DNA of 64,000 nucleotides from a virus. Its lineage: Duplodnaviria > Caudoviricetes. The DNA is taken from the IMG/VR virus record IMGVR_UViG_3300020371_000002, one strand, 5' to 3'. The position numbers and the translations under genes were made by a program. Shown in pieces: positions 13,670-49,103 of the stretch. Within the stretch, counting starts at the first letter, position 1. Each line of letters starts with the position of its first letter. The notes below the pieces were generated by a model. The model was not told where the DNA came from. It worked only from the letters and a program-made list of their open reading frames with translations, and made no database searches.

Positions 13670-13694
13670 AAAAAAAGGGTTGCCAAGGCAACCC
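13670..13694 (-). terminator. Intrinsic terminator
   Basis: GGGTTGCC-TT-GGCAACCC followed by T7 on the minus strand. Confidence 0.85.
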
Positions 13695-13885: not shown

Positions 13886-13984
13886 CTAACTTAATTTGTG
13901 TAAGAGGAGGATCTCACCGTAAAGTAATCCAATGAATGCTGCACAACCAAGGGACGTTAGTCCGACTACTTGTAGTGCTTCCAT
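13886..13984 (-). CDS. Single-TM microprotein (32 aa)
   Basis: MEALQVVGLTSLGCAAFIGLLYGEILLLHKLS. Confidence 0.55.
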   Translation of the reverse strand: MEALQVVGLTSLGCAAFIGLLYGEILLLHKLS

Positions 13985-13989
13985 GGCGA

Positions 13990-14157
13990 TCACTTAGTAT
14001 AGGTGCGACCACGATAGCAGTAGGTCCCGTGAGACTCTTTGCTTTCTACACAACGCTGATCATACTCAACACCACGATAGGCAGTGTGAGAAATCTGGGC
14101 ATCATGCAGAGCAGCCTGCTTCTCGATTTGCTTTTTGATTAGAGTAAGTGTGTTCAT
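13990..14157 (-). CDS. DUF4278-like small protein (55 aa)
   Basis: AGGAG SD; MNTLTLIKKQIEKQAALHDAQISHTAYRGVEY...CYRGRTYTK; this family typically follows Downstream-peptide RNAs. Confidence 0.75.
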   Translation of the reverse strand: MNTLTLIKKQIEKQAALHDAQISHTAYRGVEYDQRCVESKESHGTYCYRGRTYTK

Positions 14158-14189
14158 GATTGACTCCTGAAATACTAGGGATTTACGCC

Positions 14190-14378
14190 CCGTTCCTTCA
14201 GTCGTTTGCGTCCCAGTAGTAATTACATTCGGGTACAGATTCCTTTACGGTCTCTACTAGTTCTACCACAATTTCTTTAGGTAGTTCTGATCTGTTTGCA
14301 TTGATTCTGATGATTAATGCATCAGCATCAGCGCACATCATACCAGAGTACAAAAGTAATTCAAACATGGGATGAACG
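14190..14378 (-). ncRNA. Glutamine-II (Downstream-peptide)-type riboswitch, unit 2, with an ORF in the P2 loop
   Basis: 5' half CGUUCAUCCC (14378-14369); 3' half GGGACGCAAACGACUGAAGGAACGG (14214-14190); P1 CGUUC/GGAACG, P2 UCCCA/UGGGA. Confidence 0.7.
14198..14368 (-). CDS. 56 aa protein nested in riboswitch unit 2
   Basis: MFELLLYSGMMCADADALIIRINANRSELPKEIVVELVETVKESVPECNYYWDAND; the C-terminal WDAND* is encoded by the riboswitch 3' half. Confidence 0.7.
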   Translation of the reverse strand: MFELLLYSGMMCADADALIIRINANRSELPKEIVVELVETVKESVPECNYYWDAND

Positions 14379-14380
14379 CT

Positions 14381-14614
14381 CCGTTCCGCGACTTACTTGC
14401 GTCCTATGTAAATGTCCCCTCGCATTGACCTTCTACTTTTGACTTAAGATATCCTATGAGATTCCACTTAGATCGTTGATCTAAGTTGGGATCCATTTGG
14501 ATCTCTACTCGTCGCTGTAAGAACCTTTCACAACTCATGTGCCACCCATAGGGTGACCCGTCATTATGATGGGCTAAGGTCATCGCCAGTAAGAAACTTA
14601 GCATGGGATGAACG
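14381..14614 (-). ncRNA. Glutamine-II (Downstream-peptide)-type riboswitch, unit 1, with an ORF in the P2 loop
   Basis: 5' half CGUUCAUCCC (14614-14605); 3' half GGACGCAAGUAAGUCGCGGAACGG (14404-14381). Confidence 0.7.
14404..14604 (-). CDS. 66 aa protein nested in riboswitch unit 1
   Basis: MLSFLLAMTLAHHNDGSPYGWHMSCERFLQRR...CEGTFT; AUG directly follows CGUUCAUCCC; stop UAG overlaps GGAC. Confidence 0.7.
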   Translation of the reverse strand: MLSFLLAMTLAHHNDGSPYGWHMSCERFLQRRVEIQMDPNLDQRSKWNLIGYLKSKVEGQCEGTFT

Positions 14615-14640
14615 ACAGTCCTACTATAGGACTCATGCCT

Positions 14641-14647
14641 TATTTAG
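14641..14647 (-). promoter_or_regulatory. T4-type late promoter upstream of the riboswitch chain
   Basis: CTAAATA about 27 nt upstream of unit 1. Confidence 0.55.
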
Positions 14648-14706
14648 TCAAGTAAATCATTAAATCGTAACATTAGATACCATTTTGGTATCTCAGCGAT
14701 ACCATT

Positions 14707-15120
14707 TTAGGATTTCTTTAACTTTTTATAGACAAAATTATTGCGGGTCAAGATCATTCCTGCCCGCTTCGTCTCGATATAGTTCGAGAAGTTTGATGTA
14801 TTCTGTTTTTGCCACTCTATAATGCGTGCTTCCTTATAAGGATCATAGAATCCCTGTCGTGTGTACCACGAGCGCCAGTCCTCATGGGACTTGTCTCTAT
14901 TGCACTCAGCACACGCACAAATGAGATTTTTTGTCTCATCAGTCCCCCCGTGAAAACGGGGAACAACGTGGTCTAGAGTAAGATTTTCTCTAGATCCACA
15001 ATACGCACACTTATAGTTGAATGATTCTTTAATCGAGTCTTTCCATATACGTCTAGCTTCTCCTGGGGAACAAGTATGAAGATTATAAAGATAATCTTCG
15101 GGTGAGCTAAAGACTTCCAT
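14707..15120 (-). CDS. HNH endonuclease
   Basis: CAYCG...LTLDHVVPRFHGG...NLICACAECNRDK. Confidence 0.9.
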   Translation of the reverse strand: MEVFSSPEDYLYNLHTCSPGEARRIWKDSIKESFNYKCAYCGSRENLTLDHVVPRFHGGTDETKNLICACAECNRDKSHEDWRSWYTRQGFYDPYKEARIIEWQKQNTSNFSNYIETKRAGMILTRNNFVYKKLKKS

Positions 15121-19357: not shown

Positions 19358-19475
19358 TTTAAATAAGAATAAGTAAGACCATCAGGGAAATGGTGGAGTT
19401 ACTATTCCTCTGCGCCCTAGGCAGAGGTATGAGAGACTGTTCTTTAGACACGCTGTTTAGTCTCGGTCAGGCGTG
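19358..19475 (-). ncRNA. Structured psbA 5' leader (PhotoRC-II-like motif)
   Basis: Hairpins ACACGCCTG/CAGCGTGT, CCTCTGC/GCAGAGG and ACCAT/ATGGT directly upstream of psbA. Confidence 0.55.
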
Positions 19476-19519
19476 TTTACAACCAGTTAAAGAACTTTAC
19501 ATTCCGTAACGTGTTGATG

Positions 19520-43019: not shown

Positions 43020-43031
43020 AAAATCCTTTTG

Positions 43032-43116
43032 CTCGCCACCTTATTTTAGGAATAAGGAAACCCGAGGGGTCGTAAGACCATCCCGACCAGGGCTGTTAGA
43101 GTCCTTCCGTGACTAA
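43032..43116 (-). ncRNA. Structured leader RNA, wcaG-motif-like
   Basis: Stems AGTC/GACT, GGTC/GACC and CCTTATT/AATAAGG, ending in GUGGCG; upstream of the glycosylation cluster. Confidence 0.45.
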
Positions 43117-43808
43117 AATTTCAGGTGTAGATAATTGGTCCCGTAACCATATCTATCAGCGTATTGTTTAGTAGAATGTTTTTCACCAAATTCACCATCT
43201 AACATAAAGTTAAATGCAATACTATATCTTACAGGTCCATCTGATTTTGTGTTAATCGGATTGACCATGTGGCTCAGATGTGAAGGGAAAAGATACAACG
43301 TTCCTTCGTCAGGTGCGAATTGTTTCACACAAGTATTGATGTCAGTAACATCTTCAACGTTTATTTCCCAATCATCTGTGCTCCAAGTGGGTCCACTTCT
43401 GAAGAATTGAATTTCCCCACCCTCATTTGGGTCATTTACACGGGGATAAAATACCCCACTAAACAAAGCATTAGAATGCCAATGCTTAACAGCATAACAC
43501 TGATCCTGATACCTATTACACCAAGAGGTGACACAATGTATCTTATGAATATTTCGGTCGATACTCAATACATTGTATAGGTAGACTTCTACTTCCTTCA
43601 TAATCATGTCTCGGACTTTTTCCATGCCTGGAACATCCAAAACACTTTTAATTTGTGTCACAGATCCATTGGATCTGCCCAACTGATCAACATCCTGTCT
43701 CCATTCAAGTTCTTCTAAGATGTTAACCATCTCAAAGAACTCTTTTGGCCTGAAAGGAAGTTGTGCCTCGTATAGAGGGGTAGGAAATAGTAAATGTAAT
43801 TGCGCCAT
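43113..43808 (-). CDS. Putative Fe(II)/2OG oxygenase (TIGR02466-like)
   Basis: LFPTPL, SWCN, HWHSNALFSGVFY, LFPSHL.H, RYSIAFN. Confidence 0.85.
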   Translation of the reverse strand: MAQLHLLFPTPLYEAQLPFRPKEFFEMVNILEELEWRQDVDQLGRSNGSVTQIKSVLDVPGMEKVRDMIMKEVEVYLYNVLSIDRNIHKIHCVTSWCNRYQDQCYAVKHWHSNALFSGVFYPRVNDPNEGGEIQFFRSGPTWSTDDWEINVEDVTDINTCVKQFAPDEGTLYLFPSHLSHMVNPINTKSDGPVRYSIAFNFMLDGEFGEKHSTKQYADRYGYGTNYLHLKF

Positions 43809-44620: not shown

Positions 44621-44694
44621 TCGGGGTGATAGGATTCGAACCTACGGCCACTCGCTCCCAAAGCGAGTGCTCTACCAAGCTGAGCTACACCCCG
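44621..44694 (-). tRNA. tRNA-Pro(UGG)
   Basis: Cloverleaf, anticodon arm CTCGC-TTTGGGA-GCGAG, GGTTCGAATCC; no encoded CCA. Confidence 0.95.
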
Positions 44695-44841
44695 TCAGTG
44701 TTCTTTGTATTTCTCTGGGTGTTTTTTAGAGTCGTGAATATAATACGCAAAAGGTATTAGAAGAGAGGTCCCCGCAATAGAACCAACTAGAGCGGGGTAG
44801 TGATGAACCACATTCATTGCAAAGTGTAAGATGTGGACCAT
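44695..44841 (-). CDS. Single-TM microprotein (48 aa)
   Basis: GGAG SD; MVHILHFAMNVVHHYPALVGSIAGTSLLIPFAYYIHDSKKHPEKYKEH. Confidence 0.55.
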   Translation of the reverse strand: MVHILHFAMNVVHHYPALVGSIAGTSLLIPFAYYIHDSKKHPEKYKEH

Positions 44842-44854
44842 TATGGAATTCTCC

Positions 44855-45370
44855 TTAACTTGAGAGGTACTCTAACATTCTTTCGGCAGATGATTCTTTG
44901 AAAGGATCATCCGACGCACCAGAAGGTTCTTTAAACCATGCAGTTGTAATCATATCGTCAATTACTACAGAATATCTCCAGCTTCTATCACCGAAGCCAA
45001 TGTAGTTCTTATTGATACGCATGTCGGCCCAGTTAGTAAATTCTAGGGCTCCATCTGGGATGTGTTTAATCTTCTTAATCTTCAAGTCCTTAAACCATGC
45101 ATCCATTACAAATGCATCGTTTACGCTGAGACAATAGATTTCATCTAGTTTACCAGCCTTTTTCAACTTTGCAAAAAGTTTTTCATATCCAGGCAAATGC
45201 TTGGAGGTACAGGTTGGTGTGAAGGCTCCTGGGATTGCAAAGACTACAACTCGCTTTCCTGCAAAAAGATCTTCAGCAGTCTTAGTTACAAATTCTCCAT
45301 CCTCACGATACTGCCACGAAAGGGTTTTCGGAACAGTACGAATATCTGATCTGGGTGGTGCGTAATCCAT
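44855..45370 (-). CDS. Peroxiredoxin (Prx5/redoxin type)
   Basis: VVVFAIPGAFTPTC..KHLPGY, CLSVNDAFVM.AW, RSWRYS. Confidence 0.92.
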   Translation of the reverse strand: MDYAPPRSDIRTVPKTLSWQYREDGEFVTKTAEDLFAGKRVVVFAIPGAFTPTCTSKHLPGYEKLFAKLKKAGKLDEIYCLSVNDAFVMDAWFKDLKIKKIKHIPDGALEFTNWADMRINKNYIGFGDRSWRYSVVIDDMITTAWFKEPSGASDDPFKESSAERMLEYLSS

Positions 45371-45410
45371 TAGTAATCTAAAATTAACTTCAAACTATCT
45401 TATATATGCT

Positions 45411-45629
45411 CTATGCGGCACATTTATCTTCGACGCGATCCTCAATAGATTTGAGTTCGCCCTTAGTAGTATACAACAGTCTTTTTGTTTCTGTCAATAC
45501 ATAGAACCCTGTGATGGACTTTCCATCATCGGTCCAACCATAGGCTATAATCCTTTCATTTACATCATGGTCATTCAAGAGTTTTGATGTGTGAAGGTAA
45601 TGGTTGTACCTTTGGTGGAGATTGATCAT
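45411..45629 (-). CDS. Conserved hypothetical protein
   Basis: MINLHQRYNHYLHT...ERIIAYGW. Confidence 0.65.
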   Translation of the reverse strand: MINLHQRYNHYLHTSKLLNDHDVNERIIAYGWTDDGKSITGFYVLTETKRLLYTTKGELKSIEDRVEDKCAA

Positions 45630-45877
45630 CAGCGTACCTCAAAGTTTAATTTTCGAACTTTCCTTTTACGGCGTTCGTCTTGGTATTTTAGGTCACTTTG
45701 TGTGAGGATTCCATCACTTTTAACATTATCTTTAGATTTTCGAAACACAACTTTTCCTAAGTCTACAGCAGAAACCCTGTCGCCATTTACGGTTACCATG
45801 TTTGGGCAACCACAACAAGAGAATCTACCATTCATTTCTAATTCGGTGTTACAATCTTTACACCTTACATATTCCAT
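45629..45877 (-). CDS. Zn-binding hypothetical protein
   Basis: CKDC...CCGCPN...AVDL...RKVRKLNFEVR. Confidence 0.7.
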   Translation of the reverse strand: MEYVRCKDCNTELEMNGRFSCCGCPNMVTVNGDRVSAVDLGKVVFRKSKDNVKSDGILTQSDLKYQDERRKRKVRKLNFEVR

Positions 45878-45881
45878 ATGT

Positions 45882-46463
45882 TTATCCCGTTAGGTTGACT
45901 GTTAGAGACAGTCGAGGTTCTTTAGATTCATGTACACAATGCACTGTTCCATAGGGAACCATAATCAAATCGCCAGGTCCATACTCTTTTGTTTCTTCAC
46001 CGACCTGCCATAAACAAGATCCGTACAATGGTTTCACAATTACATGATAGTCGTGGTTGTGTGGAGGGAAACTAACCCTTCGACTGGTGCTACCCTTTGT
46101 GAAATACAAGTTAGCAACTGTCCGACTACCTTTCAAATCAAAGAGTCTACGATCAAGTTCTCTAAGTTCTTCAGTTAAATCAAGAATATCTGTGATGTGA
46201 GTAGTGAATCCCAAATCATAGATCTGTTTCCATTTATAAAAATCTAAGCAACCATCTCCGTCATAATAAGAATCAGAAACTCTTCCACAATGATTGATGC
46301 TTTCTAAAGATCCTCTTCCCCACCGTTTCTTGATCTGCAATAGATCAAACATTCTCTCCTCGGTGAAAGGAATATCTATATTGTGAATTATTTCTGCACA
46401 GGCGTTGAGGTACTCCTCATCGTCAGGAGAAGTTACGAAAAACTGTTCATTCATATTTATCAA
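45882..46463 (-). CDS. JmjC/cupin-4 oxygenase-like protein
   Basis: ANLYFT...SFPPHNHDYHVIV..LYG...W...GD...VP.GT.H. Confidence 0.8.
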   Translation of the reverse strand: MINMNEQFFVTSPDDEEYLNACAEIIHNIDIPFTEERMFDLLQIKKRWGRGSLESINHCGRVSDSYYDGDGCLDFYKWKQIYDLGFTTHITDILDLTEELRELDRRLFDLKGSRTVANLYFTKGSTSRRVSFPPHNHDYHVIVKPLYGSCLWQVGEETKEYGPGDLIMVPYGTVHCVHESKEPRLSLTVNLTG

Positions 46464-46468
46464 AATGA

Positions 46469-46540
46469 TGGGAAATACTGGATTCGAACCAGTGACTTAT
46501 TGCTTGTAAGGCAACCACTCTACCGCTGAGTTAATCTCCC
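46469..46540 (-). tRNA. tRNA-Val(UAC)
   Basis: Cloverleaf, anticodon loop CTTACAA. Confidence 0.93.
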
Positions 46541-46544
46541 AAGG

Positions 46545-46616
46545 CTCCCCCGCCAGGATTCGAACCTGGGACCAGACGATTAACAGTCGTCGGCTCTACC
46601 GCTGAGCTACAGAGGA
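46545..46616 (-). tRNA. tRNA-Asn(GUU)
   Basis: Cloverleaf, GACGA-CTGTTAA-TCGTC. Confidence 0.95.
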
Positions 46617-46646
46617 ATATGTGTTAATTATATGAGGAAACCCCTG

Positions 46647-46934
46647 TCATGGCAAGGGTGTCCACTCATATCCATAAGTCTTGGGATCTTCTTTGATCAT
46701 ATCTTCAACAGTAAATTCAACATTACTATCAGGATGTGACCATGGTTCGGTGTGACCATTCATCATGTTCAAAAGACTTTTTGCCTTGTCACATTCGGTT
46801 TTATGATACTGTTCATGTTCGCGAAGTGACTTAATCAATACACTGTAGATGTCTTCTGCAGTGACTTCTTCTAAATTTAGAGCATCTAAAAGAAATTCTT
46901 CAAGTCTATTCAGAGAATAAGATGAATACTTCAT
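46647..46934 (-). CDS. Hypothetical protein
   Basis: ORF track; packed operon. Confidence 0.6.
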   Translation of the reverse strand: MKYSSYSLNRLEEFLLDALNLEEVTAEDIYSVLIKSLREHEQYHKTECDKAKSLLNMMNGHTEPWSHPDSNVEFTVEDMIKEDPKTYGYEWTPLP

Positions 46935-47176
46935 TGATTTTCTTGTTTTTCAAGTTGATCAAATTCGTTAGCAATGTGCCATAGAGTATCTATAACACAA
47001 TGATAACCTTGTTCCCACTCGTTTGGTTTAGCGGCAGTACGAAAAGGGGGGAAGTCCTTTACGATTGCACGGATGAGTCCGCCAGGAGTGTCATCATTGT
47101 ACTGACTCTCCAAGATCCTCTTCGGTCTCTCCAGAGAAAATTCGTTTAGCATCTTTTGTAGAAAGCATAAAAGCAA
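46931..47176 (-). CDS. Hypothetical protein
   Basis: ORF track; start uncertain. Confidence 0.5.
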   Translation of the reverse strand: MLLCFLQKMLNEFSLERPKRILESQYNDDTPGGLIRAIVKDFPPFRTAAKPNEWEQGYHCVIDTLWHIANEFDQLEKQENQ

Positions 47177-47723
47177 AAACCCAAAGGATTCTATTCTTTT
47201 TCCCTACAACTTCATCCACCTCATGTTCAGCGTCAGAAACAATGTAGGAAAGTAGATCGGTATCTTCAACATCCCATGGTTCACCATCTATGATAGTGAC
47301 TCCGCCACCTTTTGGTTTACGGCTGATGATGTTGAAATGTACTGTAACTGTATCTTCCATCCATACAGGATCTATATGTCGGTGTACAGTTCCTCCTTCA
47401 AAGCTTATCTCCGTAATTATACCATCCAAACCAACGGGTGCAAAGCCATACTCTTCAATATCAAAAGTTCTTAAGATTCTATCTTGAATCCAGTATGCCT
47501 CTGCAGGATAATCAAAATCAGAAGGTGAACTAATGACCTGTCCTGTTTGAGGAATTACTAGAGGGGTAGCAAAACGAGTTGTGAGTTTAGTTCTTTCTTT
47601 TTTATTGGTATCCATTTTTGGATCCATAAAAATATCCCTCTCATAATTTGAAAGGGTCCATTCGTTAAGTTCGTCTCGCTCAGATTCAGTAATAAAATCT
47701 TTGTATGCTTTGACCTTATCCAA
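47094..47723 (-). CDS. Fe(II)/2OG oxygenase-like protein
   Basis: GGTVHRHIDP...NII..KPKGGG...HEV..V.G...R..WVF. Confidence 0.75.
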   Translation of the reverse strand: MDKVKAYKDFITESERDELNEWTLSNYERDIFMDPKMDTNKKERTKLTTRFATPLVIPQTGQVISSPSDFDYPAEAYWIQDRILRTFDIEEYGFAPVGLDGIITEISFEGGTVHRHIDPVWMEDTVTVHFNIISRKPKGGGVTIIDGEPWDVEDTDLLSYIVSDAEHEVDEVVGKKNRILWVFAFMLSTKDAKRIFSGETEEDLGESVQ

Positions 47724-47724
47724 A

Positions 47725-48198
47725 CTAGTCTCCTAAAGTATGCACCACAGGTTTTTCGTGTAGCAAAACCTCATAGAGTCGAGGTTCCTGTGCAGCAGAT
47801 ACAGGTTGAAACTCAGATTCTGGGTCAAAACCTTCTGTACGAATTGCCTGATTGATAACAATAGATCCCTTTTCACCCGAGATAGAACGGTGATACGTCT
47901 GAGGTGGTATGACTAAGGCACCAGATGTTCTGGTGAGGGATACAATATGATATGGATACTTCCATTCAAAGTTTACCAACTCGAAAGTTCGTTCACCTTG
48001 AAGGACACGATTGTTATCAGTTTGATGATAGTGTATATAGAATTGTTTGGCACCTACCAAATCATTTGGAGGTGAAATCGCAGGGCCCTCGTGACATACA
48101 AGATCAGAAGCGTTTGAATCTTCTACAGAGATATCATAAAAAATAACATCAGGAGTCTCGCGGAACACCCGATGTTTTTTGTATTGAACGTCACTCAT
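47725..48198 (-). CDS. Cupin-like conserved cyanobacterial protein
   Basis: FRETPDV.FYDI, GAKQFYIHYHQTD.NRV..GER.FELVN, YHRS.SGE.GS. Confidence 0.7.
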   Translation of the reverse strand: MSDVQYKKHRVFRETPDVIFYDISVEDSNASDLVCHEGPAISPPNDLVGAKQFYIHYHQTDNNRVLQGERTFELVNFEWKYPYHIVSLTRTSGALVIPPQTYHRSISGEKGSIVINQAIRTEGFDPESEFQPVSAAQEPRLYEVLLHEKPVVHTLGD

Positions 48199-48482
48199 TT
48201 ATCTATGTCTAGTGGTAGATCTTGGGGGTTTTCCAATTCTACATCAAAGAGACAGGGATGGCACTCTTCTGCAATAAGATAATCAGAGCACTGATACAAC
48301 CATTTCTCTGGTACGTCTTCACGTTTTTCTGCTTCTTCAATTACTAACGGATCATTTACCTCTAATTCAGTCAGTTGATCAAAAGTGAATGGCATATGAT
48401 TTACGAAGTACATTTTCACAGCCATTTTCCTACCATCGACAGAATAATATCTGTACTGTTGTTCGATCTTAAGCTTATCCAT
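48195..48482 (-). CDS. Hypothetical protein
   Basis: PFTFD...LIAEECHP.LF..ELENP. Confidence 0.6.
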   Translation of the reverse strand: MDKLKIEQQYRYYSVDGRKMAVKMYFVNHMPFTFDQLTELEVNDPLVIEEAEKREDVPEKWLYQCSDYLIAEECHPCLFDVELENPQDLPLDIDK

Positions 48483-48504
48483 GTGTTACCGATCACACAC
48501 ATTA

Positions 48505-48950
48505 CTATTTACACAATAATTTGTAGGCAACAGTAACTCTTAGTTCCTCAAAGGATTCTGGAGGACCAATTGAGTGATGCGGAATGTATCCAGGGAACAT
48601 AAGAGCAGAATTTTCTTCTGGTGTATGGATACCATAACCTTCGAAGTATGTCCCACTGACAGCATTCATGTAGATTAAAAATGTTCTGTCGTCTGGGTTC
48701 AGACTATCTTGATGAAGCGACCCATGTTGCCCGTAGGTCGTTCCATTAGCGTATATTCTATCAACTGTATACTTTTTTGTAAGTAACGGTCGTATCTTTT
48801 GTAGGAAGATGTCATAAAAGAATTCATCTTCTAATTCCATAACCCAAAAGGGTTTAGAATCCATCGTACTTCTATGTCCAAACTCCCATCTAGGAAGCAT
48901 CAACAAAGATTTAGCTGTGTCCAACTCTTCCTCAGAAAAGAAGGCACTAA
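48505..48950 (-). CDS. Fe(II)/2OG oxygenase (start codon unresolved)
   Basis: RIYANG.TYGQHGSLHQD...FLIY...PG.IPH...RVTVAYK. Confidence 0.75.
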
Positions 48951-48953
48951 AAG

Positions 48954-49025
48954 AGCGGAATAGCGGATTCGAACCGCTGACATTCAACTTGGAAGGATGA
49001 CGTTCTACCACTGAACTAATTCCGC
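48954..49025 (-). tRNA. tRNA-Gly(UCC)
   Basis: Cloverleaf, anticodon loop CTTCCAA. Confidence 0.93.
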
Positions 49026-49029
49026 AAGG

Positions 49030-49103
49030 CGTCTCAGGTAGGATTCGAACCTACGACCGACTGCTTAGAAGGCAGTTGCTCTAATCCACTGAGCTACTGA
49101 GAC
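49030..49103 (-). tRNA. tRNA-Arg(UCU)
   Basis: Cloverleaf, CTGC-CTTCTAA-GCAG. Confidence 0.95.

Follow-up and report, generated by a model that had tools for sequence, protein, structure and literature searches.

The window analysed here is a stretch of 64,000 nucleotides (nt) of viral DNA (Caudoviricetes; IMG/VR record IMGVR_UViG_3300020371_000002). It belongs to a T4-like cyanomyovirus, with PhotoRC-II and wcaG RNAs and a transfer RNA (tRNA) cluster in the 64 kb, and its nearest database records are Synechococcus phages. On the minus strand, upstream of a small gene of DUF4278/IF17-like type, lie two open reading frames (ORFs) of 66 and 56 amino acids, each headed by an exact CGUUCAUCCCAUG element and each finishing in or at a glutamine-riboswitch 3' core (Table 1). 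The 64 kb hold two exact copies of CGTTCATCCCATG (14614-14602 and 14378-14366) and only two copies of the pattern GACGCAA-N9-GGAACGG (14403-14381 and 14212-14190), for which about 0.15 chance matches are expected with two mismatches permitted. All the elements that a preliminary description of this DNA had drawn on the minus strand are present in the sequence. From our analyses we consider it probable, at roughly 0.6, that the locus is a double type-I glutamine aptamer with genes nested inside it, in which folding and translation of the nested genes exclude each other.

ORF1 matches PHROG 6471 (E = 2.9e-39; cysteines C25 and C61) and ORF2 matches PHROG 504 (E = 4.7e-22; cysteines C12 and C48, both invariant in the alignment); neither family carries an assigned function. 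Two scans of IMG/VR returned at least 120 matches each, and the locus set used here (n = 133) comprises at least 120 IMG/VR loci, found with a junction-motif scan, together with loci from GenBank. In the loci listed, all 123 nested ORFs contain exactly two cysteines, 31-40 residues apart, and fall into one BLAST cluster; the family is characterized by a hydrophobic N-terminus and these two invariant cysteines. Nucleotide differences accumulate at the third codon position, both in unit 1 ORFs (4081 versus 2179 and 1533 at the other positions) and in unit 2 ORFs (2476 versus 1769 and 766), and ORF lengths differ by multiples of three. Because of the third-position bias, the length steps of three and the two invariant cysteines, we conclude from these comparisons that the nested ORFs are real genes under coding selection. 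The AlphaFold model of ORF2 predicts a small, helical protein (predicted local distance difference test score 81.6), which had no match among solved structures at E ≤ 0.001, and the nested protein matched no Pfam family.

The reading frames begin and end within the putative sensor. In nearly all of the approximately 120 ORF-bearing units the AUG lies 3-5 nt past CGUUCA, and none of these units has a Shine-Dalgarno sequence of its own within the loop. The 12 nt before the AUG of ORF1 and of ORF2 contain no purine-rich Shine-Dalgarno sequence, as the preliminary description had noted. It had also placed the ORF1 stop codon UAG within the 3' strand of the hairpin stem (P2) and the C-terminus of ORF2 within the aptamer 3' half, and both placements are correct: the last five codons and stop of ORF2, W-D-A-N-D-stop, are GGGACGCAAACGACUGA of the aptamer core. 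Among relatives, the C-termini WDAND, WDAKAD and, in some first units, GRK represent the aptamer core read in two different frames. This overlap is common but not obligatory, since ORF2 ends early in a few phages; in S-CAM1 (656-880), S-TIM54 and one further locus it stops 5-18 nt before the 3' stem strand.

The stems that close around the ORFs show compensatory base changes. In the window, CAUAGGA, with the ORF1 stop codon inside it, is complementary to UCCCAUG save for one C.A. The homologs carry UCUCAUG/CAUGAGA, UCUUAUG/CAUAAGA, UCUUAUG/GUGUAAGA, UCCAAUG/UAUUGGA and UCCGA/UCGGA, and changes at the ORF1 stop codon (UGA, UAA or UAG) go together with changes in the bases right before the AUG. 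Computed over distinct sequence combinations, base pairing at the first five stem positions amounts to 96.8% in hairpin 2 (79.7 ± 2.5% with shuffled partners) and to 89.2% in hairpin 1 (79.3 ± 2.0%), values that were reached in 0 of 2000 shuffles for either unit; stem position 4 occurs as C-G, U-A, A-U, G-C and U-G. The compensatory changes surround loops of 138-234 nt, while the same stem closes loops of 4-30 nt in relatives. RNAalifold additionally predicts a nine-pair helix inside ORF1 (alignment columns 34-42 with 190-198), in which G-C changes to C-G in six sequences and to U-G in three, and C-G to U-A in three; the changes from G-C to C-G alter both encoded residues. In the full-length ensemble the hairpin stems have a probability of 0.8-0.99. 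A local, circularly permuted stem between the unit 1 3' strand and the unit 2 5' strand was rejected: 70% of its positions are paired, compared with 91% for the long-range partner, and it also fails at the covarying positions, although within the window itself both pairings reach 6/7.

The covariation thus bears out two claims made from the window alone, namely that P2 pairs across an ORF and that the start codon of unit 1 shares a stem with the stop-codon region. The further claim, that whole coding sequences occupy the variable hairpin loop, agrees with the covarying stem, with the short-loop relatives and with the occurrence of all four combinations of short and ORF-bearing loops: the 133 loci listed comprise 32 ORF/ORF, 8 ORF/short, 48 short/ORF and 28 short/short loci, the remaining 17 being cut by a contig end. 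Translation has to compete with folding of the sensor, as had been anticipated, because the AUG is part of a stem and the stop codon or the C-terminal codons belong to the 3' strand or the core.

Relatives with short loops, which we used as the natural equivalent of a loop deletion in silico, allow the riboswitch class to be assigned. In IMG/VR relatives with the window's own flanks and loops of 4-30 nt, the merged pair of units scores 41-43.6 bits on the glutamine-I model RF01739 (cut-off 35 bits), unit 2 alone 32-35.4 bits and unit 1 alone 25.7-28.9 bits. The same RNAs score 23-31.6 bits on the glutamine-II model RF01704, under its cut-off of 33 bits. Phage S-CREM1 carries two compact elements, with hairpin loops of 4 and 12 nt, upstream of a DUF4278-like gene with the YRG motif. 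These elements have been annotated as glnA (PMC9964418), their cores align base for base with the halves in the window, and the counterparts of units 1 and 2 score 20.4 and 33.5 bits on RF01739, respectively. ORF-bearing and short-loop forms have identical cores. Across 20 phages with approximately 30% difference between their ORFs, neither the two core strands nor the 23 non-coding nt that make up the 3' half of unit 1 show any change.

Three strands, CGUUC, the CGCA linking strand and GGAACGG, make up the glutamine pocket, with the residues C1, G2:C39 with G18, G40 and C19:G41. Binding does not require the hairpin loop, in place of which the crystallised RNA carried UUCG, and an aptamer in two pieces also binds glutamine and assembles upon glutamine addition (PMC6698751). 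When these residues are mapped onto the window, the three pocket strands appear in both cores, and CGUUCA of core 1 would contain C1 and G2. This CGUUCA corresponds to positions 3-8 of the RF01739 consensus, a strand that forms P1 in type I and a pseudoknot in type II. CGCAAGUA of unit 1 aligns to CGGAAGUA of RF01739, and GAAGGAACGG of unit 2 matches its GAAGGAACG. The scores of the short-loop relatives with identical flanks uphold the earlier recognition of glutamine-riboswitch cores. The glutamine-II label fits less well, given the higher scores on RF01739 and the presence of both the E-loop and the P3 helix of type I. The region would appear to be a variant form of a riboswitch class that is already known, glnA (type I), with glutamine as its presumed ligand.

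It takes both units to complete the E-loop and P3. The AGUCG of the first 3' half is complementary to CGACU in the second, and this inter-unit helix is flanked by AAGUA and GAAG, the two strands of an E-loop such as is listed for the glnA motif (Weinberg 2010); AAGUA/AGUCG belongs to the first 3' half and CGACU/GAAG to the second, unit 1 being without the GAAG strand and unit 2 without the AGUA strand. The best cmscan alignment of compact pairs joins the first CGUUCA, hairpin 1 and ACGCAAGUA to ACU-GAAGGAACG of the second unit, and treats the 38-39 nt between the halves as the P3 loop. Compensatory changes in P3 extend over 25 distinct sequence combinations and include AGACAAC with GUUGACU and GGACGG with CCGCCC. 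The terminal pair is always U-A, G-C, A-U or U-G, with no mismatch, and overall pairing is 77.7% compared with 69.3 ± 1.8% after shuffling (observed value reached in 0 of 5000 shuffles). A covarying helix between the 3' halves of units 1 and 2 contradicts the chain of independent units that had been described.

P1 (CGUUC/GGAACG) is kept by RNAalifold in 20 of 20 sequences for unit 1 and 31 of 31 for unit 2. P3 can be nested without conflict when the last GGAACG is the partner of the first CGUUC and a local hairpin takes up the inner strands. In the most economical predicted fold the first CGUUC and the last GGAACG would accordingly form an outer P1, and the inner GGAACG-AG-CGUUC a local hairpin; the calculated energies are -131.7 kcal/mol for this nested fold, -132.2 kcal/mol for the unconstrained minimum and -129.2 kcal/mol for two independent units. 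Both ORFs would be situated inside sensor loops under either P1 assignment. As far as base pairing can tell, the two units of at least these tandem glutamine riboswitches are not independent but physically interlocked.

The downstream gene matches PHROG 545 (E = 1.5e-34). Glutamine riboswitches usually act on DUF4278 genes (PMC6212724), and both glutamine riboswitch types have been reported as ON switches for DUF4278/IF17-like genes. Ahead of the gene, CUGAAG, which has bases in common with P3, the E-loop and the core strand, can pair with UUUCAG. In relatives a 5' G in this helix stands opposite C (38), U (38) or A (3), and a 5' A stands opposite U in 34 cases and opposite C in none of the 34. 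The second GGAACGG falls between the two strands of this helix, whose 5' strand would in the type-I fold be part of P3 and the E-loop. We therefore regard the two as putative mutually exclusive structures, and CUGAAG/UUUCAG appears a better fit as an alternative, ligand-free helix than as a type-II P2. CGUAAAUCCC, previously interpreted as a degenerate third 5' half, is not conserved in homologs; it is situated between the aptamer GGAACGG and the UUUCAG of this covarying anti-Shine-Dalgarno helix.

Further features were noted in this region. The first two codons of the downstream gene, AUGAAC (14152-14157, minus strand), are complementary to GUUCAU at 14608-14613 and 14372-14377. In the full-length minimum-energy fold the first CGUUCAU pairs with the start region of the downstream gene, and AUGAAC is kept in most relatives of the window type and not in those of the S-CREM1 type. 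Past the last GGAACGG, and ahead of the downstream gene's Shine-Dalgarno region, Syn9 (920-975) and other relatives have an additional conserved insert of approximately 45 nt (...AAACGGAUCC-stem-GAGAAGGUUAA...).

Table 1. Features of the locus in order of transcription, with positions in the window.
Feature	Position	Strand	Remarks
Sigma-70-type promoter, TTGACT (14651-14646)-N17-TATAGT (14628-14623)	14623..14651	-	10/12 matches in promoter scan
CGUUCA, 5' core strand of core 1	14609..14614	-	invariant in 20/20 aligned homologs
Hairpin 1, 5' strand UCCCAUG, including ORF1 start codon	14602..14608	-	partner 14408-14402
ORF1, 66 amino acids, in loop of hairpin 1	14404..14604	-	PHROG 6471
Long-range helix within ORF1, 5' strand	14578..14586	-	partner 14430-14422; RNAalifold
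Long-range helix within ORF1, 3' strand GGUCAAUGC	14422..14430	-	RNAalifold
Hairpin 1, 3' strand CAUAGGA, including ORF1 stop UAG (14406-14404)	14402..14408	-	
CGCAAGUA, linking strand CGCA (G18/C19 equivalents) and AGUA strand of E-loop	14394..14401	-	invariant
AGUCG, 5' strand of inter-unit helix P3	14389..14393	-	partner 14204-14200
GGAACGG, first copy of 3' core strand	14381..14387	-	invariant; either CGUUC copy possible partner
CGUUCA, 5' core strand of core 2	14373..14378	-	2 nt past first GGAACGG
Hairpin 2, 5' strand UCCCA and ORF2 start codon (14368-14366)	14366..14372	-	partner 14215-14211
ORF2, 56 amino acids, in loop of hairpin 2	14198..14368	-	PHROG 504
Hairpin 2, 3' strand UGGGA	14211..14215	-	stem pairing across subtypes
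CGCAAA, linking strand of core 2	14205..14210	-	
CGACU, 3' strand of P3, overlapping ORF2 stop UGA (14200-14198)	14200..14204	-	
GAAGGAACGG, GAAG strand of E-loop and second 3' core strand	14190..14199	-	invariant
CUGAAG, 5' strand of alternative anti-Shine-Dalgarno helix	14196..14201	-	partner UUUCAG 14172-14167
UUUCAG (14172-14167), 3' strand of alternative helix, overlapping Shine-Dalgarno sequence AGGAG (14168-14164) of downstream gene	14164..14172	-	
Downstream gene, 55 amino acids, DUF4278/IF17-like, two YRG motifs	13990..14157	-	PHROG 545
Intrinsic-terminator-like hairpin and T run	13677..13694	-	likely operon end

We propose that the transcript would start 1-3 nt before the first CGUUCA and fold into a double aptamer upstream of the DUF4278/IF17-like gene, each variable hairpin loop having expanded to hold one whole gene for a two-cysteine small protein. 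The sensor would assemble only on ribosome-free RNA, and a ribosome on either nested ORF would unfold it. Once bound, glutamine would hold the RNA in its closed form, with both nested start codons out of reach. It would also draw CUGAAG away from UUUCAG and thereby free the downstream Shine-Dalgarno sequence, in keeping with reports that both types of glutamine riboswitch are ON switches. On balance, as glutamine rises, the IF17-like protein would be translated at the expense of the nested proteins. In this scheme we infer both that the ligand binds and in which direction control acts.

Several results weigh against this proposal. Rfam scans of the window at the gathering threshold, and of positions 13900-14900 at E ≤ 10, gave no glutamine-family match, a scan of 12 ORF-bearing homologous GenBank loci (E ≤ 5-10) gave no glutamine-riboswitch match, and the database record nearest to the window has no RF01739 match. 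The family assignment consequently rests on the short-loop relatives; a missing covariance-model match is the expected effect of a loop of 160-210 nt. The downstream gene reaches only 18.8 bits (E = 0.0022) on DUF4278, under the cut-off of 25.3 bits, and hairpin 1 of the window has a C.A mismatch at position 4. P1 has no covariation support because its strands never vary, and the CGUUC:GGAACG partners are not fixed; of the pairing in the preliminary description, the two invariant copies of each strand stand, and the partner copies as drawn are not established. In the full-length ensemble the 3' strand of core 1 favours the local CGUUC of core 2, and forcing two independent aptamers costs approximately 10 kcal/mol. 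Closure of loops of 160-210 nt in vivo must compete with ribosomes. Moreover, termination at the ORF2 UGA would bring a ribosome onto the anti-Shine-Dalgarno helix and open it, so that the downstream gene might be coupled to ORF2 translation instead of being reciprocally switched.

One alternative is that the nested ORFs are passengers in an ordinary ON switch for the IF17-like gene, the loops being tolerant sites and the start-codon pairing a by-product of packing. The dispensable loop, the UUCG of the crystal and the binding by a two-piece form (PMC6698751) are all compatible with this, as are the four combinations of short and ORF-bearing loops, which imply that ORFs come and go, and a homing endonuclease gene between the cores of phage Sf-CH5, which indicates that the locus accepts insertions. 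Mere tolerance sits poorly, however, with an AUG that is placed inside the stem, 3-5 nt past CGUUCA, in nearly all units, with loops that lack a Shine-Dalgarno sequence, and with C-termini read from the core in two frames. Only one protein family is found in the loops, and the compensated internal helix of ORF1 extends the closure. We consider the passenger explanation unlikely. Slightly less likely still is that each 5' half pairs with the next 3' half, through P1 and the stem, to give two autonomous aptamers in series. Units folded in isolation do adopt this form (unit 1 with a P1 probability of 0.99, unit 2 with 0.38), a review regards glutamine riboswitches in tandem as independent units (PMC9481103), and unit 2 alone scores up to 35.4 bits in short-loop relatives, which reaches the RF01739 cut-off. 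In such an arrangement, though, the compensated inter-unit helix would be a pseudoknot against both P1 helices, and each unit would be missing one strand of the E-loop. The corresponding fold is 2.5 kcal/mol worse than the nested one, and in the full-length ensemble the P1 probability drops to 0.02 for unit 1 and 0.00 for unit 2.

The locus might also be a relic in which no sensor is left, its conservation being due to translational coupling signals, cassette-shuffling repeats or homing-endonuclease targets. The repeated 13-mers and GGAACGG could allow modules to be gained and lost, endonuclease genes occur beside or inside the locus, and the window itself has no glutamine-family Rfam match. 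Against a relic, covariation maintains three helices (the hairpin stems, P3 and the anti-Shine-Dalgarno helix), which is the signature of a working RNA structure; all pocket nucleotides are retained in both cores, and the cores are the same in ORF-bearing and short-loop forms. We regard this explanation as very improbable.

Starting from the double aptamer with nested genes, a further step is conceivable, which we put forward tentatively and with distinctly less confidence than the proposal itself: the locus may be a ribosome-gated, interlocked double sensor, an RNA that is either translated or sensing and that yields reciprocal outputs from one metabolite. If true, the translation status of the messenger RNA would feed back on glutamine sensing.

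Protein genes in structured RNAs are not without parallel. Group I introns carry homing-endonuclease ORFs in peripheral loops and thus share with the present locus a gene in the loop of a structured RNA and an opposition of translation and folding; they are, however, ribozymes, the ORF start lies outside a core stem, and the product is a mobility enzyme. The Escherichia coli IF3-L35-L20 operon is under long-range pseudoknot control with the protein L20 as effector. Its regulatory structure, like the one described here, brings together segments that lie hundreds of nucleotides apart with coding sequence between them, but the effector is a protein and not a metabolite, and the structure does not wholly enclose an ORF whose start codon lies in the closing stem. 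The two-piece glutamine-II aptamer (Huang et al. 2019, PMC6698751) likewise forms its pocket from segments without the short connecting loop, in a glutamine-driven association; that split was artificial, at A20/U21 and in trans, whereas here it would run across a translated ORF.

Compared with glutamine-I riboswitches (RF01739), the locus has CGUUCA, a hairpin, ACG(G/C)AAGUA, P3 and GAAGGAACG in the same order, including the E-loop, as well as the same pocket nucleotides, a putative DUF4278/IF17-like gene downstream and short-loop phage relatives that pass the cut-off. It differs in its protein-coding loops of 207 and 162 nt (consensus approximately 4 nt), in a P3 "loop" that contains a second complete core with its own hairpin, in a linking strand CGCAA as in type II instead of CGGAA, and in that the window itself has no covariance-model match. 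With glutamine-II (RF01704) it shares CGUUCA, a hairpin, (A/G)CGCA and GGAACGG, a predicted helix flanking GGAACGG that reaches the ribosome binding site, and a small YRG peptide gene downstream. Type II, however, has an 8-nt pseudoknot loop segment before GGAACGG that is missing here, it has neither the AGUA/GAAG E-loop nor P3, and the short-loop relatives stay under its cut-off. Glutamine riboswitch doublets, of which 157 have been counted, are seen as independent and pseudo-cooperative, each unit with its own expression platform (PMC9481103). The present locus resembles them in having two cores in series on one leader, 2-4 nt apart, and departs from them in the covarying helix that joins the 3' halves, the single visible expression platform and the genes inside the hairpins.

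Upstream, the promoter had been described as a late one with the sequence CTAAATA. This motif occurs in 37 of 124 distinct homologous upstream regions and is less conserved than a sigma-70-type element, TTGANN-N16-18-TANNNT, which ends 7-10 nt before CGUUCA in 74 of the 124; the promoter is thus not clearly late. The sigma-70-type element of the window ends 8 nt before CGUUCA, and transcription is predicted to start 1-3 nt before the aptamer. The promoter-side hairpin of the preliminary description exists as an inverted repeat (AGTCCTA/TAGGACT, 14617-14633, minus strand), but because this repeat surrounds the -10 hexamer, which lies at its centre, the hairpin is probably absent from sigma-70-driven RNA. 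Sf-CH8 (AGGTCT..AGGCCT) and Syn9 (GGTC..GGCC) have other letters at this repeat and retain the pairing. The repeat could be an operator; alternatively, a late promoter of TAAATA type that overlaps the -35 element could give a longer transcript with the repeat as its 5' hairpin.

An HNH endonuclease gene (14707-15120, minus strand) lies immediately upstream of the promoter, and the same is observed in S-TIM5 and S-TIM54 (1-363). In Sf-CH5 an annotated homing endonuclease gene (691-1263) is situated exactly between GGAACGGAG-CGTT and CGTTCATCCC, with CGTT on both sides. The invariant riboswitch DNA may be a homing target. Downstream, two more small ORFs precede the terminator-like site on the minus strand, at 13993-13886 (35 amino acids) and 13876-13718 (52 amino acids, PHROG 6192), and are probably on the same transcript as the DUF4278-like gene. 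Elsewhere on the minus strand of the window are the PhotoRC-II RNA (19394-19489, 56.4 bits), the wcaG RNA (43025-43117, 43.1 bits, slightly over the cut-off of 42) and five tRNA genes within 44621-49103.

The region matches 415 cyanophage GenBank records, and the ORF2 family is found in 308, all of them cyanophages. A DNA pattern for the ORF-bearing unit 2 matched six places in cellular genomes, namely four phage-like contigs in metagenome bins and two chance GC-rich sequences, and had no match in any named cyanobacterium. The four bins (Acetobacteraceae, Verrucomicrobiales, an uncultured bacterium and Euryarchaeota TMED129) hold double aptamers of the cyanophage type with a nested two-cysteine ORF; these contigs are probably mis-binned phage, and one of the four is from a freshwater lake.

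In cyanophages, a survey of riboswitch distribution detected no more than two glutamine aptamers; its authors concluded that riboswitches are seldom used by phages (PMC5473149), a conclusion that may reflect search models unable to bridge gene-sized loops. The original descriptions of the glutamine motifs mention small downstream ORFs and no genes inside the aptamer. Our literature search returned no account of genes nested in glutamine aptamers or of an inter-unit helix; an early remark in Ames and Breaker (2011) is possible. Riboswitch aptamers are usually seen as compact non-coding leaders, and here whole genes lie inside the sensor, in a nested layout that is widespread among cyanophages, shows compensatory base changes and has been missed by standard riboswitch searches. 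If the ribosome-gated reading is true, cyanophage riboswitches would be far commoner than covariance-model surveys report, hidden by their gene-bearing loops. On one and the same RNA, this layout sets translation against metabolite sensing. It would link nitrogen status, during infection of marine Synechococcus, to small phage proteins without assigned function and to an IF17-like putative regulator of glutamine synthetase.

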